In this document: one piece after another, positions 7,631-31,853 of the stretch
How the letters are laid out: every line of letters begins with the position of its first letter
How positions within the stretch are numbered: position 1 is the first letter of the stretch
Origin: Myxococcales bacterium
Lineage (GTDB): Bacteria; Myxococcota; Kuafuiibacteriia; Kuafuiibacteriales; Kuafuiibacteriaceae
Assembly: GCA_019634385.1 (NCBI GenBank)
Contig: JAHQVK010000175.1
Span: forward strand, 333-64,332
Direction: 5' to 3'
DNA length: 64,000 nt
Translations under genes and position numbers: made by a program
The notes under the pieces: generated by a model
What the model was told of the DNA's origin: nothing
The model's database searches: none
What the model saw: the letters and a program-made list of their open reading frames with translations, nothing else

Positions 7631-7778
7631 CTAGCAGGCCATCGGAAAAGTGAGTTATGCGCTTCGCTCGTCCTTTTTCCGTGGAAGGTCTGGACCGGCT
7701 TCGCCCTCTTCATCCGGAGCGTTCCACGGAAAAGATACTTCGCGGATCACCCATCCCACTTTTCCGATGGCCTGCTAG
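7631..7778. repeat. family C palindromic element, copy C1
   Basis: ctagcaggccatcggaaaagtgagtt...cccacttttccgatggcctgctag. 148 bp with 22-bp terminal inverted repeats. A3 follows after 2 bp. Confidence 0.85.
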
Positions 7779-7780
7779 GC

Positions 7781-8016
7781 TAGGGCGCGTCTTCCAACTC
7801 CGGCTGCGGAGCTGACGCGGTACAGCAAAGACCCCTTATTGATTCTTGCAGAATCAATAAGGGGTCGCGCAGCCGGGCATAGCCCGGCGTAGAATCAGGA
7901 ACTTGGGTTCAACCCAAGTGATTTCTGCTGTATCCCGCGTTTGTGAGGGTTCGTCCCCTCGGTCGGGTACATCCCGTACCTTCCCTCCGGGGCCGAAGTT
8001 GAAAGACACGCCCTAG
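7781..8016. repeat. family A copy A3 (forward, variant core) carrying nested B2
   Basis: The A termini are intact. The interior is interrupted after gacgcggta by a family-B element. It starts immediately after repeat C1. Confidence 0.8.
7823..7930. repeat. family B copy B2 (reverse), nested in A3
   Basis: cagcaaagaccccttattgattcttgcagaatcaataa...cttgggttcaacccaagtgatttctgctg. Flanked by ta/ta inside A. Confidence 0.8.
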
Positions 8017-8796
8017 CGTGATTGTGCCTAGTGGTTGAATCTCCACAATCAGTGCGGTTTCGGTGCTTGGATGCTCTTTGTTGCTGTCAGTAGGCTTTGG
8101 TGCCGCTTGAGAGTGTGGGAAGGTGTGTACGATTGCTGACTTGGCTTAGTGTTGATTGGTAAAAGGATCGCGCACGGGGTTGTAGAGCGAGGAAAGGGGG
8201 CTGGAATGTGGTGCTAGGTCAGCGAGTTATGGCGATACACAAGTGTTTGCTAAATGTAGGAGCAAAGATGTTGTACGATGGAGCGCGAGTATACGCTCGG
8301 GGGTTGTCGCCATCTTTGGCTATCCAAAGCCGACTGAAGAACTGTCAGGAGAATTCTTGGCACCGCCTGACAGACCCTGTGTCTGCTGAGATGTTGGGTT
8401 TGAAGAGCTACGGGATGGAATCGGAAGTCGATACCTCTCACCAGGGAAGTCGAGTTCGTGGCGAATTAACGTGTGTCTGGATCCTGAAGAAAGTTTGGCT
8501 CCGTTGGTGGCGTTCAATAAGGAGAGGCCAGGTGTTCAGCTTGTGGTTCAAGTTACTTCTATTTGAGTTGATTTCTCTAGGGCGGAGTGACCAGAGCAGA
8601 CCACTATGAGCTGTATCTTATTCGTGGTGAGGGGAGGTCCTGAGTAGGTGTCTTTTGGTACGTAGGAGAGCCGCATAGACTCAGTAATATTTGGCGAGCT
8701 TGCTATGGGCTTGAGGTCGAAGAGCAAGCAGATGTTGACGGAGATCATGCTGAATTTTCGATGAGCATATCTTCCGCGAATAGGTGATAGAGGTAT

Positions 8797-9639
8797 ATGG
8801 TCATGAGGTTACGATACATTTCCGGATTATGGATAGTGTCTATGCTGACGTTTTTGCTGGTTGAGGGCGTTTCTATTGGCGCTGAGCTGGTTGGTGACGA
8901 TGGAGTTCAGTCTACACTGAACCAAGCGAAGTATTACCGGGACAACGGTCGTTTGGCCGAAGCTCGAAGTGAGCTCGATACATGGCTGCGGTGCCATGGT
9001 AACCAGGACAACTTCCACATTCTTGCCGCTCTAGCTCGGGTGCAGTTTGAACAATTAGACTTTGATAACGCCTCCATGACATGGATGAAATTGCAAGGCC
9101 TATCGGAGCCCGAAGAGGTGGCCCCTTGGGTGTCATTCTTTGCTGAAAAGTGGCCGAATCTCGTGGGAGGGCTTGAAATTAAGGGCGATGGTCGTCCGGT
9201 GCTGTTCACTCTCGAACGCGCCGGATTGGTCGCTGACGCGGAGCTCACTAAAGCTTTTCTAGAGCGGGAGAAGCGGGTTCTGAAGCGTCTTACCAATCGA
9301 GTGTTTTATTTGCCAGCTGGGAGGTATCGCATCGACTCCGCATATATTGATGTTGTTGCTGATAGCATTGCGGAGGTATCAGTTTCAGAGCTCAAAATGG
9401 GGCCGGAAGCTTACGAACGAGCGAGGGACTATCCAGATAGCTATTCGTTCGTTTCAGAAGTCCGGACTTGTACGTCATCGTCTATGTTTAGTGATTCGCC
9501 GAAGCCTACAAATTTCTTTAGAAAAACGTGGCCTTGGTGGGTTGGCGGGATTGTGGTGGTGGGAACAGCTGTTGGGATCGCCGCGATGATTTCACCTGAA
9601 GATAACTATGTCATTGATTTCCAAAGAGATGGGAGATGA
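8797..9639 (+). CDS. hypothetical membrane-anchored protein
   Basis: 280-aa ORF with a signal-like N-terminus and a C-terminal TM segment (WWVGGIVVVGTAVGIAAMI). It is immediately followed by the TolB-like gene. Confidence 0.4.
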   Translation: MVMRLRYISGLWIVSMLTFLLVEGVSIGAELVGDDGVQSTLNQAKYYRDNGRLAEARSELDTWLRCHGNQDNFHILAALARVQFEQLDFDNASMTWMKLQGLSEPEEVAPWVSFFAEKWPNLVGGLEIKGDGRPVLFTLERAGLVADAELTKAFLEREKRVLKRLTNRVFYLPAGRYRIDSAYIDVVADSIAEVSVSELKMGPEAYERARDYPDSYSFVSEVRTCTSSSMFSDSPKPTNFFRKTWPWWVGGIVVVGTAVGIAAMISPEDNYVIDFQRDGR

Positions 9640-9646
9640 GTAGAGA

Positions 9647-10885
9647 GTGGGATGGATCGAACTGCTGCTGATCCTTGGCGAAACGATGTCCGCCCAAGCA
9701 CTCTCGCAAGCAAGGCTCCATCCACAATTGACGGCGGTACCGTTAGGTGCGGTAGCACCGGGAGACGTTACTTGTCCTCGATGGTCCAAAGACGGAAGGC
9801 ACATTGCCTTTGAACGTGTATTTCATGCTCAGAAACGAGTGGAACTCTATCTGCTCGAGAATGTTCATAGTGGTCACTCCAGTACCGTTCGGTTGAGTGG
9901 TCAACAATCAGCGGGTAGCAAGGAGGGGCGCCGCTCAGAGGATGGCAAGGGGCGGCTACGCTCATTGTTCAAGGGACTGGAGATTGAGCGATGTCATGAT
10001 CTTGCTTGGGCGACAGAGGATGTGGCGTTTGTCTGCAACGATGGGGGAGAGCAACTATACATAAGACGTGGGAAAAGAAGATCGGTTGCAGTCACTGAGA
10101 AGGGTGTGTCTGCTCAACCAACTTGGTCCGCGGATGGGATGACATTGGTGTTTGTGTCTACTCGGGATGGTTTGGGAGCCCTGCATCAGATTTCGTTTGA
10201 AGGGGACCGTCTTGATGGGCCGAGCCCGCTCCTTAAGCGTTCGGAGAATCTAGAGCTCTACCCACAGTGGCACCCGAAAAAACCTTACTTGTTGTACACA
10301 GCCATGACGTCGGGACGGGGCAGTGATGTTCATTTGCTTTCTGAGATAGCTGCGCAAGCTAAAATCCGCCAACTTGTTAGTACCCCATACGATGAATTTC
10401 ATGCTACTTGGTCCCCAAACGGTCAGAAAATCGCGTTTTATAGAGTAAGAAACCGGGGGGAGGGAGGCCCGAGGCAGACATTGCCACGGGCTCTGACTGC
10501 TGACGAATCTGACATCTGGATTAAAGACGTCAGCGCGGACCAGCCTTCATTTCGATTGGCTTCTGCGGTCCATGTGACTACGGGCGGTCCAGCGTGGAGC
10601 CCGGATGGAGACTGGGTCGTATATACATCGGGGGCCAGTGATCAATTGTTTGCCGCGGAGGCAAAAATTGACGGACAAGTTATAGAAATTCCGTTAGCGA
10701 CTATTTCGAACCGGGAGCCGGTGCTAACTAAGTATCAAGAGCGCTGGTTTGTAGCTTATACCACTCTCGGTGAGGCGAAAAACGACAAACGGATGTGGAG
10801 AAGGCTTTATTGGACTCATCTGGACTCTACGATTTTCAGAGTTGCTGGTGATAAAGAAGACAAACGAAATGGGAATGCCTACTAG
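9647..10885 (+). CDS. TolB-like PD40/WD40 beta-propeller protein
   Basis: Repeated WS(P/A)DG...VF/VY motifs (WSADGMTLVFVSTRDG, WSPNGQKIAFYR, WSPDGDWVVYTS) typical of PD40 repeats. N-terminal signal. Confidence 0.6.
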   Translation: MGWIELLLILGETMSAQALSQARLHPQLTAVPLGAVAPGDVTCPRWSKDGRHIAFERVFHAQKRVELYLLENVHSGHSSTVRLSGQQSAGSKEGRRSEDGKGRLRSLFKGLEIERCHDLAWATEDVAFVCNDGGEQLYIRRGKRRSVAVTEKGVSAQPTWSADGMTLVFVSTRDGLGALHQISFEGDRLDGPSPLLKRSENLELYPQWHPKKPYLLYTAMTSGRGSDVHLLSEIAAQAKIRQLVSTPYDEFHATWSPNGQKIAFYRVRNRGEGGPRQTLPRALTADESDIWIKDVSADQPSFRLASAVHVTTGGPAWSPDGDWVVYTSGASDQLFAAEAKIDGQVIEIPLATISNREPVLTKYQERWFVAYTTLGEAKNDKRMWRRLYWTHLDSTIFRVAGDKEDKRNGNAY

Positions 10886-10886
10886 C

Positions 10887-11072
10887 TAGGGCGTGTCTTT
10901 AACCTCTGGATGTGGAGCTGACGCGGTATCTCGCGCGTGTGAAGGGTCGGTCCCGGAGGGAGGGTACCGGATGTACCGGACCGAGGGGCCCGAAAGGGGG
11001 GCGAAGCCACCGGCCCCTCACAAACGATGGAAACAAGTCAGCACGCGGTCCGGAGGGTAAAGACACGCCCTA
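10887..11072. repeat. family A copy A4 (forward)
   Basis: ctagctagggcgtgtctttaacc...ggagggtaaagacacgccctaa. Confidence 0.85.
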
Positions 11073-11074
11073 AC

Positions 11075-11330
11075 ATTACCTGATTGGTGTTGTCCTGAGA
11101 TGTCTGGGCATCCATTGTTCACAACAGGGGTACCGTGCCATTTTCCGTATGAGACTTCTTTTAGGAACCCAGAAAATTGGTTCCAATTCTGAGTAGAGGA
11201 CGGAAAAGTGCTTTCGGTATTGTCCACACCCCGGACGTTGAGCTCGGCCTGTTGTTTCTCCTGGATAATGTGTTGGAGCCGCTCAAACCCTTGTGAGGAC
11301 TGCTTGGCCTTGTGCCACCGCCATCTGCAT
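11075..11330 (-). pseudogene. IS5-family (IS1031/IS427-like) transposase N-terminal fragment, decayed
   Basis: The minus-strand translation PNCYVANVCRWRWHKAKQSSQGFERLQHIIQ...VDNTESTFP resembles the conserved NRWRKKGVWQRIFE...MIDSTIVRAH block of IS5-group transposases. It is truncated by a stop and has no DDE domain. It lies between repeat copies A4 and B3. Confidence 0.35.
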
Positions 11331-11552
11331 ACATTGGCTACATAACAATTAGGTATTGCGAGGTGGCATTTTAATGTCGGAGGTGGTCTATTACTTGTCC
11401 TCGAGGTACCTTAATATCCAGCAACCTGAGCTTTCCCTTTCTCATCATTTGTCTCTTCGGAGGCTAACTGTGGCTAGTCTCCTACGAGTTCAGACATTCG
11501 GTGGATCCGATATTCGCTATAGTTATTTGCCAACTTTGAGTACACATTGCAT

Positions 11553-11665
11553 ACAGCAGAAATCACTTGGGTTGAACCCAAGTTTCTGCTTCTACTCGGG
11601 CCTATACCCCGCCGCGCGCGCCTTGTTGATTCTTACAACATCAATTCAAGTGGGCTTTGCTGTAG
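11553..11665. repeat. family B copy B3 (forward)
   Basis: acagcagaaatcacttgggttgaacccaagtttctgcttctactcgggcctataccccgccgcgcgcgccttgttgattcttacaacatcaattcaagtgggctttgctgtag. Confidence 0.8.
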
Positions 11666-11781
11666 TTGGTATATATAGCTGCACTTAGTAAGAAATATGG
11701 CGCAGGGGAAATCAAAATATTTCGACCCTGCTACTTCATTATGTTTGAATATGAGTGATACAATACCCTCAGCAGTATGAC

Positions 11782-15650: not shown

Positions 15651-15671
15651 AATCGCGATATTTCGACGACT

Positions 15672-15858
15672 TAGGGCGTGTTTTTACCCTCCGGATCGCG
15701 TTCTGACTTGTATCCTGCGTTGGTGAGTGGTCGGTGGCTTCGCCACCTTTTCGGGCCCCTTGGCCAGGTAGATCCAGTCCCCTCCCTCCGTGGCCGCCCC
15801 CTCACAAACGTGGGCTACGGCGTCATCTCCGCAGCTGGAGGGTAAAGACACGCCCTAG
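15672..15858. repeat. family A copy A5 (reverse orientation)
   Basis: Reverse complement of the A consensus. Its right terminus shares CTAG with the start of repeat C2. Confidence 0.8.
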
Positions 15859-16033
15859 CAGGCCATCGGAAAAGTGAGTTAGGCGCTTCGCGGGTCCTTT
15901 TTCCGTGGAACGTCCGGACCGGCTTCGCCTTTCATCGGTTGCATACGCCCGGTATGCGCCTTCTTCATCCGGAGCGTTCCACGGAAAAGATACTTCGCGG
16001 ATCACCCATCTCACTTCTCCGATGGCCTGCAAG
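15855..16033. repeat. family C copy C2 (with ~30-bp internal insertion)
   Basis: Same termini (the right end reads cctgcaag). It carries an extra tttcatcggttgcatacgcccggtatgcgcc block. It shares CTAG with A5. Confidence 0.8.
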
Positions 16034-16097
16034 TGAGCACTTTGTTGGTGGAGGTAGGTCTGAGTCGAAGTAAGAGGTGAAAGAAGCAGTATGATTC

Positions 16098-17453: not shown

Positions 17454-17464
17454 CAAGATGGCTG

Positions 17465-18862: not shown

Positions 18863-19159
18863 TAGGGCGTGTCTTTAAACTCCAGCTGCGGAGATGACGC
18901 TGTACAGCAGAAATCACTTGGGTTGAACCCAGGTTCCTGCTTCTACGCGGGGCTATGCCCCGCTGCGCGACCACTTGTTGATTCTTATAGAATCAACAAG
19001 TGGTGTTTGCTGTATCCCGTGTTTGCGAGGGTTCGGCCCCGAAGGGAGGGTACGGTAAGTACCGGACCGAGGGGCCCAAAAGGGGGGTGAAGCCACCGAC
19101 GCCTCACAAATGAGGGAAACAAGTCAGACCGCGGTCCGGAGTCTAAAGACACGCCCTAG
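18863..19159. repeat. family A copy A6 (forward) carrying nested B4
   Basis: A termini intact. B4 is inserted at the same internal ...gta|tcccgtg site as in A3 but in the opposite orientation. Confidence 0.85.
18905..19012. repeat. family B copy B4 (forward), nested in A6
   Basis: cagcagaaatcacttgggttgaacccaggttcctgcttctacgcggggctatgccccgctgcgcgaccacttgttgattcttatagaatcaacaagtggtgtttgctg. Flanked by ta/ta. Confidence 0.8.
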
Positions 19160-20007: not shown

Positions 20008-20121
20008 ACAGCGGAAATCACTTGGGTTGAATCCAAGTTCCTGCTTCTACGCGGGGCTATGCCCCGCTGCGCGACCCCCATGTTGATTCTTACAGAATCA
20101 ATTCAAGTGGTCTTTGCTGTA
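20008..20121. repeat. family B copy B5 (forward)
   Basis: It has the same structure as B4. It lies at the left edge of the AT-rich leader of the MotAB-helicase island. Confidence 0.8.
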
Positions 20122-20675: not shown

Positions 20676-20680
20676 CCTCT

Positions 20681-21781
20681 TTGAGAGCCGTCAACGACGA
20701 AGCGTGTAGAGTTGTTATCGAGCCGGATCGCTGTGATCTGCAAGAGGCAACCTACGATCCCCGGCTGTCATCGGCTGGACGAGATGATGGTCAGCATGTT
20801 GTTTATACAACAGTAGATCGGGTTGTCTATCAGCCGGCACCAGACGTCGTGGAGAAGATCCTCGATGCCAATGGATATTCAATGAATCTCGAGAATATCC
20901 TTGCGGTACTTGACGAGGTCAAAATTGGTTACCGGCTTCAGGTGTCGAACGAGCCTTTGGCCCCCAACTCTGTCCCCATCGCCAAGACTTTTCTGCCTGC
21001 ACTCACCCTGCGACTCCCGATGAAGAACCGGGTGGGTCCACTGCTTGCAAAGTTCTATGCTGAGGTTGGTGGATACCAGAATGAACTTGTTCGGCTGCGT
21101 GAGCAAGCGGGACGAGCTCATGGAGGACAACGAAAAGAGCTGGAAGACCTTCGTCGAGAGCACGAGAAACTCAAGGCGGAGAATGAGCAGCTTCGAACCC
21201 AGGTTGACAGTCTCAATGCTGAGTTGGGTCAACTTCGAAAATCCCACGCAGCGGCCAATCACGCCTTGGCTGAACAGAATATTTTGCCGGCTCAGGTGCG
21301 TGTGGCTCAGGTGCACAAGGTTGACTTGGAGGAGCGATATGTTGCGCTTAAGTCAGGGCGCAAAGTCTTCAGTGTCCCCTTGGTGGCCATCTGGGTCTAC
21401 CCGGAAAAAGACGAGCCGTGTTTAGTTAGTATCCAAGACGGTGAAGTATCGGGCGTATTTTTTCATGAAGGTGCTCAGCCTATCCCCGGTATGGTCCTGG
21501 GTGAGGTGCTTCATGTGGCTGAGGGGCAGTGCAAAGTTCGGGAAGAAAACCGCCGTACACGGGTCATTCAAGCTCAAAATCCTGCGGAGAAGGAACTCAT
21601 CAGTCAAATGAGACGAGGGGACCGAGTCTTGTTATTCCTTCACAACGATGAGCTTCTGAGGTTTGTTCCCTGTGGAACGTTCAACGCGGAAGCTTTTGCT
21701 CGCGCGGTACAAGAATCTATCGCTCGTTGGGAAATTGCACAGTCGGAAGAACAGGGGTCAGATGGAACAGGGCCTGTATAG
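20681..21781 (+). CDS. hypothetical cytoplasmic coiled-coil protein (first gene of MotAB-helicase operon)
   Basis: 366 codons with a probable TTG start. The central segment (residues ~130-190; ELVRLREQAGRAHGGQRKELEDLRREHEKLKAENEQLRTQVDSLNAELGQLRK) is heptad-rich. Its 3' end overlaps the next gene by 20 nt. Confidence 0.5.
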   Translation: MRAVNDEACRVVIEPDRCDLQEATYDPRLSSAGRDDGQHVVYTTVDRVVYQPAPDVVEKILDANGYSMNLENILAVLDEVKIGYRLQVSNEPLAPNSVPIAKTFLPALTLRLPMKNRVGPLLAKFYAEVGGYQNELVRLREQAGRAHGGQRKELEDLRREHEKLKAENEQLRTQVDSLNAELGQLRKSHAAANHALAEQNILPAQVRVAQVHKVDLEERYVALKSGRKVFSVPLVAIWVYPEKDEPCLVSIQDGEVSGVFFHEGAQPIPGMVLGEVLHVAEGQCKVREENRRTRVIQAQNPAEKELISQMRRGDRVLLFLHNDELLRFVPCGTFNAEAFARAVQESIARWEIAQSEEQGSDGTGPV

Positions 21782-22586
21782 TCGAGCCTATTTCTCTAAG
21801 CCGCGAGCGGGAAGAGATTTCTTATCTGTTGTTACCAGCGCAATTGGGCTGGGTGCTGTAGGTTGGGCCGTTACACAAACTAGCTCTTTGGAGCAACTAG
21901 TTGATGTACGGAGTATTTTCATTGTGGGAGTGGGAACGGTCGCCACTACTCTGCTACAATATAATTTCCGGACGTGTTGGCTCACCTTAGTATCTATTCT
22001 GCGGTCGCTTTTGGGTACGCCCGTCAAAGCCGCAGTGGCCATGCGGAGAGAAATTGACGACGCGATCATCAATGGTGATCACTTGGTTACCTTGCGTGAG
22101 GGAACTCGCGTGACCGGGGAGCTTCTAAACGATATCGTATTTATGTATCGGCAAGGGCTCTTGTTTGACGAGATCGACCAATTTGTTACCTCCCGTTTGG
22201 AGGCTGAATTGAGCGACAAGCGGGTAGCGGCAGAATTACTTCGACGAGCAGCGCTTACGGCACCAGCCCTCGGACTGTTTGGAACGGTATTAGGTCTGAC
22301 AGGGGTGCTCCGATCCATGGATGATCCAACCAAGATAGGGCCATTGATGTCCCTGGCCCTGATGACAACCGCTTATGGATCAGGCCTTGGATCCTTTGCG
22401 TGTACACCACTAGCTGGTCGATTAGAGCATCATAATACCGTTTTTGTGGAAGTCCATCGACAGCTATTGAGTCGGGTAGGGATCCTTCTTGCTCGCGAGG
22501 AGCGTACTTTTGGTGTGACCCATGCACCTCAGATTAGTGACAATGCATCAGACCAGATTAGAACTTCCGAGCACGCCGATAACTGA
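21762..22586 (+). CDS. MotA/PomA-family proton-channel subunit (stator-like, compact, no C-terminal tail)
   Basis: Four TM segments. TM3 APALGLFGTVLGLTGVL and TM4 ALMTTAYGSGLGSFACTPLAGRL carry the conserved prolines of MotA. The ATG at 21762 is preferred over the track start at 21663. Confidence 0.7.
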   Translation: MEQGLYSRAYFSKPRAGRDFLSVVTSAIGLGAVGWAVTQTSSLEQLVDVRSIFIVGVGTVATTLLQYNFRTCWLTLVSILRSLLGTPVKAAVAMRREIDDAIINGDHLVTLREGTRVTGELLNDIVFMYRQGLLFDEIDQFVTSRLEAELSDKRVAAELLRRAALTAPALGLFGTVLGLTGVLRSMDDPTKIGPLMSLALMTTAYGSGLGSFACTPLAGRLEHHNTVFVEVHRQLLSRVGILLAREERTFGVTHAPQISDNASDQIRTSEHADN

Positions 22587-23193
22587 CGAGTCTAGCGCAT
22601 TCTTCATCAGTCTAAGCGATCTGATGATCCTGCTGTGCGTCTTTTTTATTATGATGGTTAGTGTAAGTAAGATCGATATGGGCTCTTTTGAGCGGGTACG
22701 CAGTGCTCTACAAGGTCATACCCAAAATACCCTGGTTGAGCTGTCGGATCGATTGGAGGAGATGGTCACTGAAGAAGCTGGTATCTCCGGGGTAGAGGTC
22801 GGTATTGGTCGGGAGGGGGTACGCCTGGATTTTGAGGCCGCTGCTCTTTTTGATTCAGGCAGTGCTGTGCTGAAAACTGGCGCTTTAGACGGCATGTTAC
22901 CAATTTTTGAAATCATTAGTACCACTCGCTACCGTATTGATGTTGAGGGACACAGCGATGATGTTCCGCTACACCGAAAAAGTGGAGATGAACTAGAAAC
23001 AAATTGGTCACTGAGTGGACGGCGAGCGAGCAGCGTGGTTCATCGTCTACAGGAATTGGGTTTTCCGCCTAGCCGGCTTCGTATCGTGGGGTATGCGGCG
23101 ACGCGGCCCAAAGTACCTATTGATGGACTCAGCGAGGAGGCCCTTGATCGTGCCCGCGCTGAGAATCGAAGGGTGTCTATCTTAATTCGATGA
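22522..23193 (+). CDS. MotB-like protein: single TM with conserved Asp plus OmpA-like peptidoglycan-binding domain
   Basis: SLSDLMILLCVFFIMMV contains the protonatable Asp at the MotB/TolR/ExbD position. The C-terminal part has OmpA-like motifs (VEGHSDDVPL ... NWSLSGRRASSVVHRL). The alternative start at 22543 is equally possible. The stop overlaps the next start. Confidence 0.7.
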   Translation: MHLRLVTMHQTRLELPSTPITDESSAFFISLSDLMILLCVFFIMMVSVSKIDMGSFERVRSALQGHTQNTLVELSDRLEEMVTEEAGISGVEVGIGREGVRLDFEAAALFDSGSAVLKTGALDGMLPIFEIISTTRYRIDVEGHSDDVPLHRKSGDELETNWSLSGRRASSVVHRLQELGFPPSRLRIVGYAATRPKVPIDGLSEEALDRARAENRRVSILIR

Positions 23194-26100
23194 GCGCGGC
23201 TATGAACCCTCCGGAAATTGAGCATCCGCATGCTCTTCAGCAACAGGTGGTCGTTAAGCACGACCGTTGGCACCGCTTTGTCATCAGTCGGAACTTGGAT
23301 CCCAGTGGTCTATATAGTTATCGACTGACTAATGCAGCTAAGCGAGAGGCACTGATAGTGCCTCTTGATCTTTTTGAGCGCTTTAGGCTAGACGTGCGTT
23401 CTTTCGCAGTGAGTGACAGGGTTGGGGATGAGGACCAACCGACCTATACCGAGCTGCGTTTTGGGGGTCGAGTATGCTTTGCCTTTCAGCGGGGACGGTT
23501 ACCGGCTGACTGGATAAAAATTCTAAGTTTCGGTGCAGATGAAGTTCCCAATCAAGAGTTTTCTATTGCTGCATCCGCCGGAGCATCATTGGTATCGGTG
23601 TTGTTCCATCCGCAGCTTGAGCATCCTCATGATCTCTTAATTCGAATTGTAACCTACCACCGATTGTTTTCCGCGACATTTCAAGGAGGAAGCGAAAGTA
23701 TCACCAGTAATTTGCAACTAAGAAAAGATCTCCTTTGTCATGTTGATCGATATACGCCGTCGCTCGTAAAAAAATCGCCAGAGGCGCAAACGGAGGAAGT
23801 ACTCTCAGATCCGGCGATGTTGAAAGACCTAGCGGTGGGGACCCCAACCCCAAAAAATAGCTCAACTTTTAAGTCGCGTCTTGGGGAAAGAGATGAGGAA
23901 AACAAATATCTGGTGGACTATGAGTCCTTGTTTTCGAGTAGGGCTACCCGTGGTCGAAAGAAGAGTCCGTCTAATCCTGCTTTGGATTTAAATACAACCT
24001 CGTCATCGGACGAGAACGTGGGGCACTTTGCGGTGCCACTTTTAGCAAAAGATATAAAGGCGTTTGCCAAGGTACCATTTCGATGTGAGCTCTCTCGAGG
24101 GGATGCGAAAATCCTTCGACAAAATTTCTTAGACGACCGAGATGCTTCCTTCTTTCTTGGTTTCGAGATGCTGGACTGCATATTCGAACAGCGCAAGAAA
24201 TTATATACTTATCGATTTCCGTTATACTATATTCCGGTACGAATTGTAGAGTCGGGGCGAGAGGCTATTCTTCATCCGCTGGAGGATAATCGTTTCTACT
24301 TGAATCATTTTGCGTTGGCGAATCTTGTAGAAACCTATTCTTCGGCTGGGCAAGCGGCAAAGCGACTGTCCGGTTTATTATCTTCGCTGCTGACCCACCA
24401 GTTTATCGTCCGTGGTGCCCAAGATCGGGTTCGAATCATACGGATGCTTCCATCACATTCGGAGGTGTTTGAGCGAACGAGGGAAATACTTCTCGGGCTG
24501 CCCGGTGAAGAAGGAAAAGGAGGGCTACTTTCTGAGGTTAAAGTTCGTGCGATTGAATGTGACTTGGAAAGTGTTGTTCTTTACAAAGCACCTCAGTCTT
24601 CCTCCCCAATCATTCGTGCTTTGGACGATGATCTAACCAAGATTGTGGCTCTCGCGAAGCGAGGAAAAGGTGCTTACCAGTCATCGCTGTTGTCTCGCGC
24701 CCTTTCGGGGAATCTCGTGAGTGTTGATGGAGGCCAAGACGAGGCGTTTTCTCGCGCTCTGTCCATGCACAGCGCGCCAACGCGGGCGGTTCGGGCGTTG
24801 ATGGGACGTCTCAATTCAAGTGATCTGGTGCTGCTTGAAGGTCCCCCAGGAACCGGAAAGACCTACACGATTGCCAACCTTCTGATTCACTGCGTTGCGA
24901 CCGGTCGCCGTCTGCTAGTGGTCAGTGATCAGAAGGCAGCGATTCAGGCCCTGGTGGAGCAAATACAGCAGTATGTGGTCGGGTCAAAGAAGAATACCGC
25001 CGAGGGAAAGCAGCTAGGTTTGTTATGGCGACTTGCAATAAAGGTAGTGGACGAGCTCCCGGAGAACACCGAATCTTTAGCTTCTTGGTCGAGGCAAGTT
25101 CGGCGTATGCTCGGCGTGGACATATCTTTAGAATTGGACTGGGGCAGTCCGGTTGATGGGTATGAGCGGGCGATTTCTCGTATAGATGTAAAAATAGCAG
25201 AAGCTGTGAAAGAAGTTGGGCTGGCCGTTCGGCGTCGCTTCGGACAGGATAAGCGATGGCGAATCCCTGTGGTGGCGGACAAGTCGGAGCATCCTAACTC
25301 AGAGAATGACGTGCAGGCTGCTCTTGAGTTGTCAGAGCGTTTACTTAGCATGGAGGGACTGCGGGAGTGGTTGGCTAGCTATTTGGGATCTCTTCAGCGT
25401 TTACTTGAGCTTAAGCTTTCCGCAATGTTCGAGTTGTTCGCGTTACGAGGCCGCAAAGATGTGGCTGTTCAACGTCTTGAACGGACCGTTGATTGGCTGA
25501 GGCGCTTGCTCCTCGAAATGCCGACCAGCATGGAAGAGTATGAGCAGCTTGAGGTAGCGGATACGGTAAAGGCGGTTCAGGCCGGCCTTGCACCCCGATG
25601 GAGAGAGTTCTATCCCCCGAAACTGGGTTGGGCGGCGAGAGCCGCTCGACTCGTGAGTCCGTTCTCTGGTGGGGCGCAACTCCGTAAATTGGTTCGGGAG
25701 TTGATCTCTATGGTTGAGAAGCAGCTGCTACTTTGGGAGCAGCAGCCAGCCTGGGATGGTGAGGTATGGCAGAGCCTTGGACGACTGCACGCGACAATAT
25801 CGCCGGATACTAAGGGATCTATTGATATTGCGCTGGAATTGCTTCTTGCTGAGTGTAGTGATCTTCACCAGGAAGAGTCGATTCACGAGAAGCTAGAATA
25901 CATTGCTCAAATGCAGCGAGATCGAGATGATCTGGTGCGTCAGCAATTTTTGTATGGGCTTGGGCGTATCGGTCAGCGCGCGTTTGCCTCTGCTCGTGGT
26001 GGGGGAACCAGTCGCCTCACGAGTATACTGGCGATGCTCGACCGCTTAGAGTCAGCACAATCTTGGGCTAAAGCTCAAGATACTGTCCGAGAGCTCCGAG

Positions 26101-27440
26101 AGTTGCTGTTTGATGTTTTCCCGATTTGGTTGTCTCGCAAGCAGGCTGTTTCGTTCTTACTACCATGTCAGGAGCAGAGTTTTGACCTTGTGGTGGTGGA
26201 TGAGGCGACGCAGTGTCGGGTTGATGATGCGCTTCCTCTGTTATTTCGGGGGAAGAAGCTCATGGCGGTTGGAGATGAACGCCAAACAGTACTCGCAAAG
26301 AACTCGGCGATCGATGATTACCTGTTTGACGACTTTGAGCTTGATGAGCATCTAAGCTTAGCTCAGGCTCGTGGTATTAAAGGCGGGGGATCTCACCTTT
26401 TTGGTCTTATTAAACGAATCAAGCAGGCATCGGTCATGTTGGATGAGCACTACCGCTGTCCGCCGGATATAATTGAGTTTTCGAATAGGTATGTATATGA
26501 AAACCAACTGCGTACCATGCAGTGGAAGATGCTCGGTTCCCCACAGTCGGTGATTGTTGATAATAGTGAATCTCGAGTACCACCCAGCGAACGGGTCCGT
26601 TCTGGAAAGTACAAGGGCACTGAAATCAGCATGATCGATCGATTTTTCGTTTACGTAGCTCGAACCATTCGACGTCTGGAGCGAGAAACCGGTCAGGAAA
26701 TAGATCCAGAAACGGATGTGGCGATTGTCTACTTTCTTCTTAAAAACGAGGCCTATATTAAAGATAAAAAGAGTGAACTGCTGAGAAAGTTACCCAGGGG
26801 TCGAGATATTCTCGATGGAGCGGGCGCGGCTCTTCAGGGTAAAGAGCGGGATTATATCTTTTATCTATGGGATATGACTCGATACAATATGGCTGCATTT
26901 CGTCAAGGAGATGATGAAAGTAAGCGTAAGGGTGAGCTAAATGTCCTGATGAGTCGTCCAAAAAAGCGAGCGTATCATTTTCTCCATAGAGAATTTGACC
27001 AGCTTAAGCATCAAACCAGTTCGATATCAGACTACCTTATGCGTGTTCAGCAAAGGAGCTATCGTAACCGAAGTTTGTCCAGTGAGCGAGGTTCTGGGTT
27101 GCTCATGCGGATGCTACTCGAGCGAGCACTGTCTGAAGATGGGGTAGAGCGCAGCGAGCTTCAACTGGAGGTCCCCATTGGTAACCAGTTACTTGGTGTT
27201 GATCTCATGTGGCTCCCTCCTAAGAAACGAGAGGAACAGTCTTCAATTGGACTGGTAGATCTGAGTATATTTGGCAGTAGTAGAGATCCTGGTCAAGATG
27301 TGGTGGACTATTTCTTTCAGGTGCAGCGAGCGATACCACGGGTCCAACCAGTATTTGGCTTTGTACACGAGTTTGCTCGTTCGTCTTCGGTGGTGATAGC
27401 TCGGCTTAAGTCACTCGCCCGGCAACGAAAAGAGGATTAA
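23190..27440 (+). CDS. 1416-aa multidomain protein: DUF4011-like N-terminal region, Upf1/DNA2-type SF1 helicase core (AAA_11/AAA_12), uncharacterised C-terminal domain (possible nuclease)
   Basis: The N-terminal YRFPLYYIPVRIV...ILHPLEDNRFYLNHFALANL block resembles DUF4011. Walker A LLEGPPGTGKTYTIANLL is at ~aa 545. Motif II VVVDEATQCRVDDA, then MAVGDERQ, and motif IV-like YRCPPDIIEFSNRYVYENQL follow. The C-terminal 170 aa (GVDLMW...IGLVDLSIF) are unassigned. Confidence 0.75.
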   Translation: MSAAMNPPEIEHPHALQQQVVVKHDRWHRFVISRNLDPSGLYSYRLTNAAKREALIVPLDLFERFRLDVRSFAVSDRVGDEDQPTYTELRFGGRVCFAFQRGRLPADWIKILSFGADEVPNQEFSIAASAGASLVSVLFHPQLEHPHDLLIRIVTYHRLFSATFQGGSESITSNLQLRKDLLCHVDRYTPSLVKKSPEAQTEEVLSDPAMLKDLAVGTPTPKNSSTFKSRLGERDEENKYLVDYESLFSSRATRGRKKSPSNPALDLNTTSSSDENVGHFAVPLLAKDIKAFAKVPFRCELSRGDAKILRQNFLDDRDASFFLGFEMLDCIFEQRKKLYTYRFPLYYIPVRIVESGREAILHPLEDNRFYLNHFALANLVETYSSAGQAAKRLSGLLSSLLTHQFIVRGAQDRVRIIRMLPSHSEVFERTREILLGLPGEEGKGGLLSEVKVRAIECDLESVVLYKAPQSSSPIIRALDDDLTKIVALAKRGKGAYQSSLLSRALSGNLVSVDGGQDEAFSRALSMHSAPTRAVRALMGRLNSSDLVLLEGPPGTGKTYTIANLLIHCVATGRRLLVVSDQKAAIQALVEQIQQYVVGSKKNTAEGKQLGLLWRLAIKVVDELPENTESLASWSRQVRRMLGVDISLELDWGSPVDGYERAISRIDVKIAEAVKEVGLAVRRRFGQDKRWRIPVVADKSEHPNSENDVQAALELSERLLSMEGLREWLASYLGSLQRLLELKLSAMFELFALRGRKDVAVQRLERTVDWLRRLLLEMPTSMEEYEQLEVADTVKAVQAGLAPRWREFYPPKLGWAARAARLVSPFSGGAQLRKLVRELISMVEKQLLLWEQQPAWDGEVWQSLGRLHATISPDTKGSIDIALELLLAECSDLHQEESIHEKLEYIAQMQRDRDDLVRQQFLYGLGRIGQRAFASARGGGTSRLTSILAMLDRLESAQSWAKAQDTVRELRELLFDVFPIWLSRKQAVSFLLPCQEQSFDLVVVDEATQCRVDDALPLLFRGKKLMAVGDERQTVLAKNSAIDDYLFDDFELDEHLSLAQARGIKGGGSHLFGLIKRIKQASVMLDEHYRCPPDIIEFSNRYVYENQLRTMQWKMLGSPQSVIVDNSESRVPPSERVRSGKYKGTEISMIDRFFVYVARTIRRLERETGQEIDPETDVAIVYFLLKNEAYIKDKKSELLRKLPRGRDILDGAGAALQGKERDYIFYLWDMTRYNMAAFRQGDDESKRKGELNVLMSRPKKRAYHFLHREFDQLKHQTSSISDYLMRVQQRSYRNRSLSSERGSGLLMRMLLERALSEDGVERSELQLEVPIGNQLLGVDLMWLPPKKREEQSSIGLVDLSIFGSSRDPGQDVVDYFFQVQRAIPRVQPVFGFVHEFARSSSVVIARLKSLARQRKED

Positions 27441-27542
27441 AGTCTTACTCTTTAAGCGAAAACTATTGATCTCACTCCCTATCATTTTTACTGAGATGTT
27501 ATCGCCCACAAGGAGCTTTGATGGCTGAAGCTGAATTGTGTT

Positions 27543-27724
27543 CTAGCAGCCTGTTGATTTGTCCATGTGTGTAGCTATCGAGCCAGGATTTTCGAGAAAC
27601 GCTCTGACGACGAGGCGAGCGTACCTGGCGGTGCGTGACCGAGGAGAGACTTTTAGTGGTCAGAAAGTTTCACGCAAAGACTGGCCGATAGATGCGTGCA
27701 GGGCTAGATCAACAGGCTGCTAGG
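27543..27724. repeat. family D palindromic element, copy D1
   Basis: ctagcagcctgttgatttgtcc...ggctagatcaacaggctgctag. 182 bp with 16-bp perfect terminal inverted repeats. Confidence 0.8.
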
Positions 27725-27908
27725 GGGTGTCTTTACGCTCCGGCTACGGAGATGATGCCGTGTCCCACGTTTGTGAGGGGTCGTGCTCGGAGGGAGGGTA
27801 CCGGGATGTATTGGGTCGAGTGGCCCGAAAAGGGGGCGAAACCACCGACACCCTCACAAACGCGGGAAAGAGTCAGAACGCGGTCCGGAGTTTATAGACA
27901 CGCCCTAG
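27721..27908. repeat. family A copy A7 (forward)
   Basis: tagggggtgtctttacgctccgg...gtttatagacacgccctag. Shares CTAG with the end of D1. Confidence 0.8.
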
Positions 27909-29851
27909 CAAGAGAACGGTTGCTTCTGTGTTCGAGCCGTTTCTGTATAGTGTGCTGGGAGTTGATTTAGTGATTCGCGAAGCTGTTGCTCACCAAGCTC
28001 AAGGAGCTTCTCGCCCCGATTCAGAAGATCCTCTACAGTGTGAAACCAACGAGTATATTGATCTATGAAGTTTCGGCCCAGCTCGGTAGGTGTTTTAGCC
28101 ATACGTTCCGCTGCGTAGCGTTCAATTTCAATTTCTAGAAACATAGTCTGAATAATGGGCGTGCTGAACGAGAGGAAAATATCACCTCCCTCAATGATAA
28201 CCTTTTGACGTATGATATCAAGAGTTTGGTAGGGATCCGTTTTTATCAGAGCGTCAAGATGTAACTCGGAGATATCGGGCGGACTATAGTTTATTTGGCA
28301 TTGTGAGGAGAATGATTTGCCTAAATCTAGCAATTTCCGTGTTTTCTGATTGGCTTCTCGTGTATCCTGAATTTGTGCTAAGAGCTGTTGCTGTTTAGAA
28401 GACTGCTCTGTTTGGTCTTTCGGCAGACAAGCAGCTAGCAGGAGGGGGCGGGGATCAGTACCCTTTCTGAGAGAGGTTAAGAGCTCAGGTAGTTCGCCAA
28501 CTTCGGTACGTGGAATATGAAGACCACGGGCCGTTGCGTTGATAACCCGGCCTGAGTAGTCTGCAATGTCGAGATCAAATTGCCGTTGGAATTCCAGCCA
28601 CCGGGAGGTGGTGGTGACGGTATCGCCTCGGGAGCCTTTGGCCTCAATTGCAGGCTGTGTGTTGAACCACTTGATCCTATTTCCGGTTGCAGTACCCTCA
28701 GCGTGTGTATTGCCGTTTTCGGCAAAACATAAATCTTGTCCAACAAGGATAATGGGATTACATCCCGCTAGAGCAGCGATTCGAAAGGCTAAGTTACCTG
28801 CGGAACCACCAAACTCAAACTCTGGTTCATCAACACCTAGCCATTGATGAAAATCTGCGGAGCGAAAAATCAGAGCAAGCGGGCCTTGGTAGTTAGATAG
28901 TATACTTGGTTGCAGTACTGGACAACATGCAAGTACTGTGTCCGGCGCTTCAAGATTCTCAAAATGACGAATGGTCATCTCTACGCGCTCTCGAGAGGTG
29001 GCGACATGTGGGCGAATTCCAGCAGCCTGTAAGATGCGTATAGATGTGTCGGGACAAAAAATAGGTACTTGGTCTTGAATGGGTTTTAAGTATGGAAGAC
29101 TGGCTTGTAAGGAAGGGCCCGCAGAAGCAACGATCGCGGGACGGCCTTTTAATATGTCTTTGAAAGCCCAGATGCTTTTCGATCGAGAAAGTATAGGTAG
29201 GTTGTGACAAATGTTTTCAAGGCCAAGCAAGACATCATTGTAGTCGTTGCCTATCATACGGGCACCGTTTTTCACTGAGTCTAAGAATATATTGGATGCT
29301 GCAACAACATAGTTGGGATATCGATGGGCAGCTCCGTGGGGTACAACCTGAGCAATACTTTTGCAGAAAAAATTATAGCGAGCATGGATGGTGTTCACGT
29401 TGAGCCTGAGTTTCAGCTCGTCGAGTGTTTGACCTATTTGCCAATCGACATGTTTATGGGCAATGGCAGAACGTAAATCAGTCATTCGTATTGCGCACTG
29501 GAAAAGGGCTACATCGGGCTCAACAACGAGGATAGTGCGATCTCTACCTTTGAAGAGTTGGAGAAGCGCATTGAGCTCCAGGCCGAGACCCAGCCCGAAG
29601 AGTCCGACCAAACGGCATTTCTGGATATCTTCGCGGCGTTGTAGCTGCTCCAGTGCGCTAGTAACAGTAGGTGTATACCATTTCTCCTGGTTGTTGGTGT
29701 CCAATAAATTGAGCGTTCCGTCAGGATCTTGGACCGTCCGTAGTGATGAAGGAGAGAGTGTGCTGGCAAGCTCGACGAGCTGCGGTCGATGCTCTTGTAG
29801 AGCAGCCATATTGGCGTCAAAGAATGGCCCGTGCATGCAGTCCCTTTTCAT
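27905..29851 (-). CDS. Maf-like (motility-accessory-factor family) protein with MptE-like/DUF115 domain
   Basis: 648 aa. AIVASAGPSLQASLPYL...FCPDTSIRILQAAGIRPH matches the GPSL-containing DUF115 core of Maf glycosyltransferase-family proteins. No flagellin genes lie nearby. Confidence 0.45.
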   Translation of the reverse strand: MKRDCMHGPFFDANMAALQEHRPQLVELASTLSPSSLRTVQDPDGTLNLLDTNNQEKWYTPTVTSALEQLQRREDIQKCRLVGLFGLGLGLELNALLQLFKGRDRTILVVEPDVALFQCAIRMTDLRSAIAHKHVDWQIGQTLDELKLRLNVNTIHARYNFFCKSIAQVVPHGAAHRYPNYVVAASNIFLDSVKNGARMIGNDYNDVLLGLENICHNLPILSRSKSIWAFKDILKGRPAIVASAGPSLQASLPYLKPIQDQVPIFCPDTSIRILQAAGIRPHVATSRERVEMTIRHFENLEAPDTVLACCPVLQPSILSNYQGPLALIFRSADFHQWLGVDEPEFEFGGSAGNLAFRIAALAGCNPIILVGQDLCFAENGNTHAEGTATGNRIKWFNTQPAIEAKGSRGDTVTTTSRWLEFQRQFDLDIADYSGRVINATARGLHIPRTEVGELPELLTSLRKGTDPRPLLLAACLPKDQTEQSSKQQQLLAQIQDTREANQKTRKLLDLGKSFSSQCQINYSPPDISELHLDALIKTDPYQTLDIIRQKVIIEGGDIFLSFSTPIIQTMFLEIEIERYAAERMAKTPTELGRNFIDQYTRWFHTVEDLLNRGEKLLELGEQQLRESLNQLPAHYTETARTQKQPFSC

Positions 29852-29966
29852 CGGCTGCTAGAGCATTAATGACAGTGTGGTGACGAAGATTGGTTCGGGC
29901 TGCAGTGGAGATTCAGTTTTTTGCTAACAATGCGCACTCGACCTCAGTAGGTCTTCGTCTTAAAGT

Positions 29967-30827
29967 TTGTCATGTTTCATGACGTATGAATTCGTCGATA
30001 TTGGCAGAGCGTCTATGCGCTTACGTCGCATTGGGACCGGAAAGCCTACGATCCTACTCGATGCTGGTTGGGGTCACTGGTCCACCGTGTGGATACGTAT
30101 CCAGGAGCTCCTAGCTACTCAGTTCCAAACGGTTGCCTTCGACCGAATGGGACTAGGTGGGAGTACACGAGTGGGATCGGATCGGCACGCCTTTCAAATA
30201 GTAGACGAACTGCAGGCCGCCTTGCTTGCGGCTCAGGTCGCGGGACCATACGTGTATGTTGGTCATGCCATAGGTGCTGTCCACGCACGAATTCATGCAC
30301 GACGAGACCATCGGGTCCAGGCTATGGTCTTGGTTGAACCTATTGTTGAGACTTTGGCTATGCAGCGGGTCTTCTCTAATTATCGTTACGGCCTTGAGAA
30401 ATCCTACCGGCGGGCATTGAGGTCCGCACGGTGGGGAGTGATTCAACCCACAGCGTGGTTGTTAGGGTGGCCGAAATTTGGCCGGAATTTACCATCAACA
30501 GGTCGCCGAGATCTCCGACGGGGCTATCGTCGGTCGGTTATGCAGACCGTATTGGATGAACTGGACTCGTGTGAGCAAAGTATGCAGCAGCTCGCTGGGG
30601 TGGGCAGTCCCGCGGTACCTATACATGTACTATCAGCCGGTCGAGACTGGTTGTTTGCCCGCCGGGACGGTCATGAGAATCATGTACAGGTGATGCATCG
30701 AAAACTGGCTTCGATGTCGCCGGTTGGATTTCATTCTGTTGTCCCAAATGCAGGGCATAATCTACATCTAGAGTATCCGCGGGAGGTGTTGTCAGCGGTT
30801 CAAGGACTCGTTAAGAAAGTGTGCTAG
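29967..30827 (+). CDS. alpha/beta-hydrolase-fold protein, probable pseudo-enzyme (Ala at nucleophile position)
   Basis: TILLDAGWGHWSTVW is an HG-like oxyanion region. The nucleophile elbow reads YVGHAIGAV (G-H-A-I-G) instead of G-x-S-x-G. C-terminal His region PNAGHNLHLEYP. Confidence 0.5.
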   Translation: MSCFMTYEFVDIGRASMRLRRIGTGKPTILLDAGWGHWSTVWIRIQELLATQFQTVAFDRMGLGGSTRVGSDRHAFQIVDELQAALLAAQVAGPYVYVGHAIGAVHARIHARRDHRVQAMVLVEPIVETLAMQRVFSNYRYGLEKSYRRALRSARWGVIQPTAWLLGWPKFGRNLPSTGRRDLRRGYRRSVMQTVLDELDSCEQSMQQLAGVGSPAVPIHVLSAGRDWLFARRDGHENHVQVMHRKLASMSPVGFHSVVPNAGHNLHLEYPREVLSAVQGLVKKVC

Positions 30828-30961
30828 CAGCCGGTTGGTTTGGCTAGGTAGCTCTTCTTCGGGAGGTTCTTTCGGTGGAATATCTCGAGCGGTCCGCCTC
30901 CTTATTGGTTACATACCCTTTGTGTACTCTCATTTTTTGCAAAAAAATTTCAGCGATAGTC

Positions 30962-31147
30962 TAGGGCTGTTTTTATACTCCAGCTGTGGAAATGCCGCCT
31001 TAGCCTGCGTTTGTGAGGGGTCAGCGTCGGAGGGAGGGTACCGCACGTACCGGGCCACGAGGCCCGAAAGGGTGGCGAAGCCACCGACTCGTAGCAAATG
31101 CGGGAAACAAGTCAGAACGTGGTTCGGAGTTGCAAGACACGCCATAG
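30962..31147. repeat. family A copy A8 (forward, degenerate)
   Basis: ctagggctgtttttatactccagc...gttgcaagacacgccatag. Diverged about 20%. Confidence 0.65.
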
Positions 31148-31194
31148 TGTTGGCGATCGTGGCTCAGTCAAATCAACGGCTGCTAGAGCCAGAA

Positions 31195-31307
31195 TACGGC
31201 AAAGACCCCTTGAATTGCTTCTGTAAGAATCACCAAGCGGTCGCGCAGCGGGGCACAGCCCGGCGTAGAAGCAGTCACTTGGGTTCAACCCAAGTGATTT
31301 CTGCTGT
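31195..31307. repeat. family B copy B6 (reverse, degenerate start)
   Basis: ...caaagaccccttgaattgcttctgtaagaatcaccaagcggtcgcgcagcggggcacagcccggcgtagaagcagtcacttgggttcaacccaagtgatttctgctgtag. It lies 48 bp from A8. A solo D-type terminus (atcaacggctgctag, 31172-31187) sits between them. Confidence 0.7.
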
Positions 31308-31504
31308 AGTCTTGAGCTGTCTATCTTTATCATCAATAAGACTCCCTTGCTGACCGGATAGATGTTCGGCTGTCCTCCCAGAACCTATGAGTTGCCGAGC
31401 CGTACTTGGGTAAAGCACAGTATTGTACCCCTCCGATCAACAAGACTTTGAATTACATAAGTCAGCTATTGTCAGCCACCTTTGGCAAGACGCTCCGCAT
31501 TGTT

Positions 31505-31853
31505 GTAGCTTCACAGCCGGTTGATCTAGCCCTGCACGCATCTATCGGCCGGTCTTTCCGTGAAAGGTCCTGACCACTAGCAGGCCATCGGAAAAGTGGG
31601 ATGGGTGATCCGCGAAGTATCTTTTCCGTGGACCGCTCCGGATGAAGAGGGCGCATACAACCGATGAAAGGCGAAGCCGGTCCAGACGTTCCACGGAAAA
31701 AAACCCGCGAAGCGCCTAACTCACTTTTCCGATGGCCTGCTAGAAGTCTCTCCTCGGTCGCGTACCGCCAGGTACGCTCGCCTCGTCGTCAGAGCGTTTC
31801 ACGAAAAGCCTGGCTCGATAGCTACACACAGGGCTAAATCAACCGGCTGTTCA
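31505..31853. repeat. family D copy D2 (reverse orientation relative to D1, split by C3)
   Basis: 31505-31576 and 31745-31853 are the reverse complement of D1 (about 90% identity). C3 is inserted between them. Confidence 0.75.
31577..31744. repeat. family C copy C3 (reverse), inserted inside D2
   Basis: ctagcaggccatcggaaaagtgggatgggtgatccgcgaagtatcttttccgtgg...cacttttccgatggcctgctag interrupts the D sequence at a CTAA site. Confidence 0.8.

Follow-up and report, generated by a model that had tools for sequence, protein, structure and literature searches.

CTAG-associated MITE families in a Myxococcales genome: evidence for TA and 4-bp target duplications

Results

MITE families in the window

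Analysis of a 64-kb stretch of DNA (the window) from a Myxococcales bacterium MAG (locus tags KTR25_) revealed a dense population of short repeats that probably falls into two classes, one duplicating TA on integration (families A and B) and one duplicating 4 bp (family D, the variant D' and probably family C). MITEs lack a transposase of their own; they derive by deletion from DDE insertion sequences and are moved in trans. By repeat finding and blastn, at least 23 MITE-like copies belonging to four families (A-D) and variants were obtained, which are dispersed in either orientation, are intergenic in every case and occupy 6.4% of the window (Table 1). The elements measure ~183 bp (A), ~110 bp (B), 140-171 bp (C) and ~173 bp (D), with TIRs of ~21 nt in A and ~37 nt in C, and they are devoid of coding capacity, as internal ORFs are short and lack Pfam matches. 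The repeats are genuine and their sequence is new, while their kind is ordinary. Family B, which the sequence-only reading did not list, is part of the same nests.

Table 1. Positions of repeat copies and of the alleged transposase remnant in the window.
Feature	Position	Strand	Description and flanks
A1	302..483	+	Family A MITE (GGGCGTG...CACGCCC); TA at 300-301 and 484-485, outer bases T, G
A2	2044..2221	+	Family A; left CTAG 2041-2044 holds TAG stop of ORF 1538-2044
C1	7635..7774	+	Family C MITE (CAGGCCATCGG...CCGATGGCCTG); CTAG at 7631-7634 and 7775-7778
A3	7783..8013	+	Short A variant carrying B2
B2	7823-7930		Inside A3; TA at 7821-22 and 7931-32
A4	10889..11070	+	Family A; left CTAGC-TA, right TA-A; paired tetranucleotides CTAG / CTAA
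Alleged IS5 transposase remnant	11075..11330		No detectable transposase similarity
B3	11554..11662	+	Solo family B MITE (CAGCAGAAATCACTTGGG...CTTTGCTG); TA-flanked
A5	15674..15855	-	Family A; TTAG (15671-15674), CTAG (15855-15858, common to C2)
C2	15859..16029	+	Long family C variant; left CTAG = last C of A5 + TA + G, right CAAG
A6	18865..19156	+	Carries B4; flanks TTAG, CTAG, then CTAG
B4	18905-19012		Inside A6; same TA as B2, reverse orientation
B5	20009..20119	+	Solo family B; TA-flanked
D1	27547..27719	+	Family D MITE (CAGCCTGTTGAT...ATCAACAGGCTG); CTAG at 27543-46 and 27720-23
A7	27723..27905	+	Abuts D1 via common CTAG; right CTAG 27905-08 holds stop of ORF 27905-29851 (-)
D'	30828..31182	+	Separate family with D-type TIRs only, carries A8; CTAG-flanked, left CTAG holds stop codon of ORF 29967-30827
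A8	30964-31144		Decayed copy within D'
B6	31197..31306	-	Solo family B; TA-flanked
D2	31514..31849	-	Carries C3; TTCA at 31510-13 and 31850-53
C3	31581-31739		Inside D2; 31577-31743 with flanks
B7	36727..36836	+	Solo family B; left TA, right TG
A9	36894..37068	+	Family A; left CTAGC-TA, right TA-A
A10	46044..46312	-	Truncated, fused to truncated B8 (deletion junction)
B8	within 46044..46312		Truncated, fused to truncated A10
A11	58458..58576	+	Decayed A-like copy; left flank TAGC-TA
A12	61768..61853	+	Right half of A fused to 19-nt B-end fragment
A13	63729..63817	+	Internally deleted mini-A, ~90 bp

The tetranucleotide CTAG is not rare in the window (174 occurrences in 64 kb, ~1 per 370 bp), yet the ends of A, C and D fall on CTAG/YTAR far above chance expectation. 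The view of these three families as TIR-bounded, non-autonomous elements that strongly prefer CTAG/YTAR sites is supported. The families extend beyond the window: at least 12 further contigs of this MAG yielded A-derived peptides, and peptides of spurious ORFs on other contigs represent further D::CTAG::A junctions (P0126, P0133) and C::CTAG::A junctions (P0122, P0129).

Outside this MAG, none of the searches matched the element sequences. A genome-contig scan with the short 16-base A terminus yielded chance matches only, none of them real by blastn, and no match came from scans of viral contigs (A, C and D) or of JGI metagenomes (C and B), from blastn searches of plasmids with A and C, or, for the repeats, from Rfam.

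Families A and B and the TA dinucleotide

The empty-site comparison that the sequence-only reading had called for gave TA for B within A: the empty site reads GCCGTATCCCG, and the filled sites in A3 and A6, with B in opposite orientations, read GGTA[CAG...CTG]TATCCCG. This proves TA as the target duplication of family B. In the closest relative (L043, 80% protein identity), where only B-like copies occur, these are TA-flanked as well; its divergence is too great for orthologous empty sites.

For family A, the flanks had been described as CTAG, TTAG or CTAA, and this was borne out, except that the confinement of the variation to the outermost base had gone unnoticed. TA is present at every one of the 22 A ends except one mutated end. 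Eighteen ends have G as the inner base next to it, the other four (in decayed A8, A10 and A13) having T or A, and an inward reading of CTAA, needed for a non-palindromic 4-bp duplication, was never seen at the 22 ends. Nine copies retain both ends, and in these the outer base is either C or T and the flanks pair as TTAG/CTAG, CTAG/CTAA and CTAG/CTAG. The two tetranucleotides are unequal in five of the nine, always at the outermost base, so that the same 4-bp YTAR does not stand on both sides. Only TA is common to both flanks, which points to a 2-bp stagger for the enzyme of A. Judged from these flanks, family A appears to duplicate TA within a YTAR target and not the 4-bp CTAG that had been taken for its target site. 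D' was considered as an empty-site source for A8 and was discarded, its interior being unrelated to that of D1 and D2.

Families C and D and the 4-bp flanks

The CTAG-to-CTAG outline proposed for C stood as a pattern (6 matches vs 0.13 expected) but failed at one flank. Including flanks, the copies at 7631-7778, 15855-16033 and 31577-31743 read CTAG-CAGGCCATCGG...CCGATGGCCTG-CTAG, with CAAG at the right of C2; all nine C ends carry CTAG, one of them mutated to this CAAG. Such flanks fit a 2-bp TA and a 4-bp duplication equally. D1 also offers an empty counterpart of the C3 site in D2, which reads CTAG...CTAG against one CTAA in D1.

The same outline had been proposed for D, where it holds for D1 (27543-27723 with flanks) but not for D2. 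The three copies, including D', have the flank pairs CTAG/CTAG (D1), CTAG/CTAG (D') and TTCA/TTCA (D2); in D2, TTCA stands on both sides of CAGCCGG...CCGGCTG and neither junction contains TA. On another contig, peptide P0139 crosses a D end with the residues A-V-R, which places T and not C next to this end. One two-flank non-CTAG copy and one peptide-derived flank thus support a duplication of 4 bp, mostly CTAG, in family D, and for D the earlier equation of CTAG with the duplicated target site would stand. For family C a 4-bp duplication is probable. With CAG...CTG, C and D differ at their ends from the GG/GA usual in the IS5 family.

Search for a transposase

A decayed IS5-like transposase N-terminus had been placed at 11075-11330. 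This was not substantiated: the six frames of 11074-11552 gave no Pfam match at E<=10, and a tblastn search of 72,556 plasmids with its most transposase-like frame returned just one, non-significant match (E=0.3) without an annotated feature. None of the 44 main ORFs of the window encodes a transposase domain, and neither an IS5-family transposase nor a remnant of one was found within the 64 kb. The possibility that, as in IS870, a parent transposase ended in the frame of A that runs through the right TIR to TAG was considered and rejected, since the profile search (1.8 billion representative proteins) returned only short spurious ORFs of 43-155 aa, the named ones from this MAG and the unnamed ones NCBI-only singletons.

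Since A appears to make a 2-bp and D a 4-bp duplication, at least two transposase types would be needed, and the enzyme of A could not be the mover of D. The proposal of non-autonomous families mobilized by an IS5-family enzyme was thus upheld in its first part, whereas a single such enzyme for A, C and D is excluded on duplication length as deduced from the flanks.

Nesting and order of insertion

The expectation that new insertions target the CTAG made by previous ones was supported by C2 in the A5 junction, D1/A7, C3 inside D2 and A8 inside D'. The tetranucleotide common to A5 and C2 lies at 15855-15858 as described; that of D1 and A7 is present too, but at 27720-23, one position off the reported 27721-27724. 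The left flank of A5 is TTAG (15671-15858 with both flanks), which indicates that A5 inserted first and that C2 then used the CTAG made by the last base of A5.

Discussion

In our preferred explanation, several MITE families would have colonized an ordinary chromosomal region of an uncultured Myxococcales bacterium, and genes at other places in the genome would supply the enzymes that move them in trans. Elements of the first class would integrate at TA with a 2-bp stagger, A preferring Y-TA-R and B taking N-TA-N, through a transposase of the IS630/Tc1-mariner type; in the case of A the enzyme might instead belong to the IS427 group of IS5. For the second class (D, D' and probably C) the stagger would be 4 bp and the usual site CTAG, in the manner of IS5-group elements. 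Because the first base of A is G and its last is C, its insertion into YTAR would rebuild xTAG on the left and CTAy on the right, so that each insertion yields at least one perfect CTAG junction. C- and D-type elements as well as further A copies may then land on these junctions, and this recreation of CTAG would account for the adjacent and nested copies.

Several known systems resemble these families. IS630 duplicates TA within CTAG (PMC2577343 Table 1; Tenzen & Ohtsubo 1991, as cited in PMC2170065), and its preference for TA inside CTAG is comparable to that of A for TA inside YTAR; the IS630-family element ISY100 also duplicates TA (PMC2170065). IS630, ISY100 and Stowaway-like MITEs share this duplication with B, where the empty site demonstrates it, and with A, where the flanks suggest it. 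The ends of B (TA-CAG...) resemble many Tc1-type ends, and MITEs derived from IS630/Tc1-mariner elements are small, TIR-bounded and non-coding like the families described here. Unlike in the IS630 group, neither an IS630-type transposase nor a matching TIR was found here, and D, whose copy D2 lacks the TA duplication, and probably C do not fit. In the IS5 family, IS427-group elements have 2-bp direct repeats (PMC3281130 Table 2) and GG-starting ends like those of A (GGGCGTG...). By its flanks and ends, A would thus fit both IS630/Tc1-mariner and the IS427 group, and the earlier label 'IS5 family' could be right for A in this broad sense. For D, and possibly C, the closest likeness is MITEPsy1 of Pseudomonas syringae, a short MITE derived from the IS5-family element ISPsy2 that duplicates the 4 nt CTAG or YTAA (PMC3189936). 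The flanks of D are CTAG, probably TTAG, and TTCA, the last outside YTAR; MITEPsy1 ends in GG, matching its parent IS, whereas C and D end in CAG and no parent was found. As the searched material yielded no autonomous element whose TIRs match, the transposase families named for A-D are putative assignments.

An explanation in which one IS5-family transposase moves A, C and D as IS5-group derivatives, with CTAG/YTAR as a 4-bp duplication throughout, would have the advantage that all three families end on YTAR tetranucleotides, that IS5 makes 4-bp YTAR duplications (PMC5009759), that MITEPsy1 is a known IS5-derived MITE with a CTAG/YTAA duplication (PMC3189936), and that D2 carries a 4-bp repeat. 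It is nevertheless very unlikely, because a 4-bp duplication cannot give the mismatched outermost base of five of the nine complete A copies, and neither an IS5 remnant nor a transposase was detectable in the window. Somewhat less improbable, though still unlikely, is the opposite simplification, that all four families are IS630-type and duplicate TA, C and D being GCAG...CTGC elements at C-TA-G and the TTCA of D2 aberrant or coincidental. The CTAG target of IS630, the TA duplications of A and B and the uninformative flanks of C agree with it, and the C3 site would fit a TA duplication plus one substitution. However, D2 has an exact 4-bp repeat (chance ~1/256) with no TA at its junctions, and the T adjoining the D end in P0139 also speaks against it.

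Target duplication is almost universal among TIR-bounded DDE elements, which makes it highly improbable that the TA belongs to A itself as its terminal bases, A having inserted between Y and R with no duplication. With no empty site for A in the window material, the TA is formally assignable to the element, and the two dinucleotides pair in the hairpin fold of A; but the empty site of the similarly flanked B demonstrably contains TA, and the Y...R context matches the CTAG/TA behavior of IS630. That same fold, a long hairpin of -49 kcal/mol (consensus) with double changes at five pairs, could suggest that the repeats are not transposons but selected structured elements that have spread through recombination, be they REP/REPIN-like palindromes, small RNA genes or terminators. 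This scarcely credible reading was dropped, as the covariation term is unfavorable (+3.3) and Rfam gave no match; occurrence in both orientations, precise nesting and flanking duplications oppose it too, and the terminal repeats, unlike REPs, are not themselves palindromic.

Within the preferred two-class explanation, 4 of the 22 A ends have TAGC immediately beyond the flanking TA (P ~1e-6). An active two-enzyme relay, recorded in the arrays, might be behind this, in which TA-duplicating A makes perfect CTAG sites, 4-bp C/D elements enter and later leave by cut-and-paste, and CTAGCTAG at A ends is an excision footprint. We regard this relay as rather doubtful; if true, it would be evidence, at the level of sequence, that a myxobacterium excises MITEs and repairs the site by end joining.

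In concept this is an ordinary result, and we know of no description of MITE swarms in this lineage. Elements that duplicate only TA at CTAG look identical to IS5 elements unless non-palindromic targets are examined, and the tetranucleotide alone cannot place CTAG-bounded elements in IS5. For the annotation of this MAG, MITE DNA at about 6% yields dozens of spurious 'hypothetical proteins'.

Inventory and genomic setting of the MITE families

Four MITE families (A to D) emerged from repeat finding and from blastn searches with a single copy of each as query; their copies account for 6.4% of the window and are without exception intergenic. Nesting is frequent: A3 and A6 each contain a B copy, C3 is nested in D2 and A8 in D', an element that resembles D solely in its D-type TIR, its interior being unrelated. 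C2 and A5 as well as D1 and A7 abut, C1 and A3 are 2 nt apart, and a possible decayed D-type relic with similar ends is located directly upstream of C1. The ends of C (CAGGCC) and D (CAGCC) are alike, and one type of end seems to be common to several of the families. A limited literature search found no earlier description of such MITEs for this lineage; A to D are new in sequence but belong to a well-known kind of element.

MITE families and associated features of the window
Feature	Position (nt)	Size	Ends	Copies in window	Remarks
Family A		~183 bp	TIR GGGCGTGTCTTTAAACTCCGG	10 full or composite, 3 fragments	75-85% alike
Family B	1-64, 7823-7930, 11554-11662, 18905-19012, 20009-20119, 31197-31306, 36727-36836, 46221-46312	~110 bp	CAGCAGAAATCACTTGGG...CTTTGCTG	8	83-94% alike
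Family C		140-171 bp	TIRs ~37 nt, CAGGCCATCGGAAAAGTG...	3	94-96% alike
Family D		~173 bp	CAGCCKGTTGAT...	2	92% alike
D'	30828-31182		D-type TIR
Possible D-type relic	7463-7628		GCTCGTTGATT
Stop in junction CTAG	2041-2044				ORF 1538-2044
Stop in junction CTAG	10882-10885				ORF 9647-10885
Stop in junction CTAG	27905-27908				ORF 27905-29851(-)
Stop in junction CTAG	30824-30827				ORF 29967-30827
Footprint-like sites	10882-10889, 19156-19163, 36887-36894, 58451-58458
MotA/MotB-like gene cluster	20681-27440

The window has a G+C content of ~50%, each 2-kb bin of positions 1-64000 shows a positive GC skew (0.06-0.23), and the + strand holds most genes of the first 45 kb. Ordinary functions were assigned to the 44 main ORFs (solute-binding protein, FIST/histidine kinase, phosphofructokinase, DAHP synthase, MotA/MotB-like proteins, thermolysin-like protease, BshC, glycosyltransferases, P-type ATPase, isocitrate dehydrogenase and others), and a transposase domain was detected in none of them. 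Neither tRNA genes nor Rfam matches were found in the window. The DAHP synthase is 100% identical to a protein of the source MAG; in the nearest relative beyond that MAG it is only 80% identical.

One gene cluster encodes coiled-coil, MotA/ExbB-like and MotB/OmpA-like proteins together with a helicase-like protein of 1416 aa (AAA_11). ZorB models match the MotB-like protein (E ~1e-15), and the helicase-like protein matches the candidate defence helicases PDC-S37 and MkoA (E 1e-19 to 1e-23). No ZorA match was obtained. Judged by these profile matches, which are not sufficient to establish it, the cluster could be a Zorya-like defence locus.

MITE-derived peptides in the source MAG

Scans of public DNA collections revealed no copies of the families. 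Profile searches with A-peptides gave 5 protein matches in one case and 16 in another, all of 43-155 aa; all named matches come from the source MAG, where they are spread over at least 12 other contigs, and none was found in other organisms among billions of proteins. Translated A is matched by at least 21 'hypothetical proteins', annotated or predicted (P0121-P0141), in several of which it is fused to C or D; all of them look like annotation artefacts that arose when gene callers translated MITE copies. P0126 and P0133 encode the junction of a D right end, CTAG and A, P0122 and P0129 that of a C end, CTAG and A, and P0125 contains D within an A TIR. As no protein of transposase size was among the matches, the open frame that runs through the right TIR of A to TAG does not point to any parent gene.

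Target duplications of the families

The sequence-only reading had proposed that A, C and D may have been moved by an IS5-family enzyme, with CTAG or YTAR as the duplicated target. IS5 duplicates the entire YTAR tetranucleotide (PMC5009759), so a non-palindromic target must recur identically on both sides, as in CTAA...CTAA. The four bases outside GGCGTG were read at each of 22 ends of family A. TA was present at all ends but one, which is mutated. The base adjoining the element was G at 18 ends; at the other four, which belong to the decayed copies A8, A10 and A13, it was T or A. The outermost base was C or T. Flank pairs were TTAG/CTAG for A1 and A6, CTAG/CTAA for A4, A5 and A9, and CTAG/CTAG for A2, A3, A7 and A8. 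Differences are thus confined to the outermost base, and the inward CTAA, which must arise if all 4 bp of a CTAA/TTAG target are duplicated, was never seen, which argues that G and C are part of the element (GGG...CCC). TA alone is common to both flanks and the target is Y-TA-R, so the 4-bp interpretation is wrong for family A. No empty site of A was recovered, and its TA duplication is inferred from the flank pattern. A 2-bp duplication within a CTAG target site is recorded for IS630 (PMC2577343 Table 1; Tenzen & Ohtsubo 1991, as cited in PMC2170065) and matches the behaviour of the A flanks; IS427-group IS5 elements, whose direct repeats are 2 bp long (PMC3281130 Table 2), are compatible with them as well.

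For family B, uninterrupted A copies represent the empty site (GACGCCGTATCCCG). The filled sites in A3 and A6 read ...GTA[CAG...CTG]TATCCCG, with the same TA and opposite B orientations, and B duplicates TA without a CTAG context. The closest relative (80% protein identity; L043, 16239-16505) also harbours diverged B-like copies flanked by TA, which makes B the older and more widely shared family. The B sequence folds into three hairpins.

Family D agrees with the earlier proposal in part: D2 (CAGCCGG...CCGGCTG) is flanked by an exact 4-bp repeat, which is TTCA and not the claimed CTAG, with TA at neither junction, and CTAG stands on both sides of D1 and D'. In P0139 a D end is followed by a Val codon (GTN), so that T, not C, adjoins the element, a second observation that a TA-only model for D cannot explain. 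All C ends seen carry CTAG (one mutated to CAAG). In D2, the site of C3 reads CTAG...CTAG, versus a single CTAA in D1; this needs one substitution under either model, and C therefore fits a 2-bp and a 4-bp duplication alike.

Proposed mechanism

At least two transposases probably act in trans, one with a 2-bp stagger at TA that would move A and B, and one with a 4-bp stagger, mostly at CTAG, that would move D, D' and probably C. Since A begins with G and ends with C, its insertion into TTAG or CTAA creates a single perfect CTAG junction, and insertion at a CTAG target keeps two. The outer flank of A5 is TTAG, indicating that A5 inserted first, into TTAG; C2 then landed on the CTAG made from the last base of A5. 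This order supports re-targeting of a CTAG created by an earlier insertion, as the sequence-only reading had suggested, but on a different molecular basis.

CTAG boundaries, possible footprints and gene ends

The CTAG borders at element ends are real; the tetranucleotide is not rare (174 copies in the window), and its association with the ends is non-random. An IS5 remnant claimed at 11075-11330 was undetectable, with empty six-frame Pfam scans at E<=10. A tblastn search of its most suggestive frame (CRWRWHKAKQ...VDNT) against 72,556 plasmids, a class of sequences containing many IS5-family copies, gave nothing significant.

The octamer CTAGCTAG occurs three times in the window, each time directly next to an A end; a fourth end, which is A-like, carries ATAGCTAG. 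TAGC lies immediately outside the flanking TA at 4 of 22 A ends (P ~1e-6). Excision of a C/D-type element that once occupied the junction may have left CTAGCTAG as a footprint.

At several MITEs the TAG stop of the adjoining gene lies within the junction CTAG. Insertion at CTAG restores the stop codon, making gene ends tolerated landing sites.
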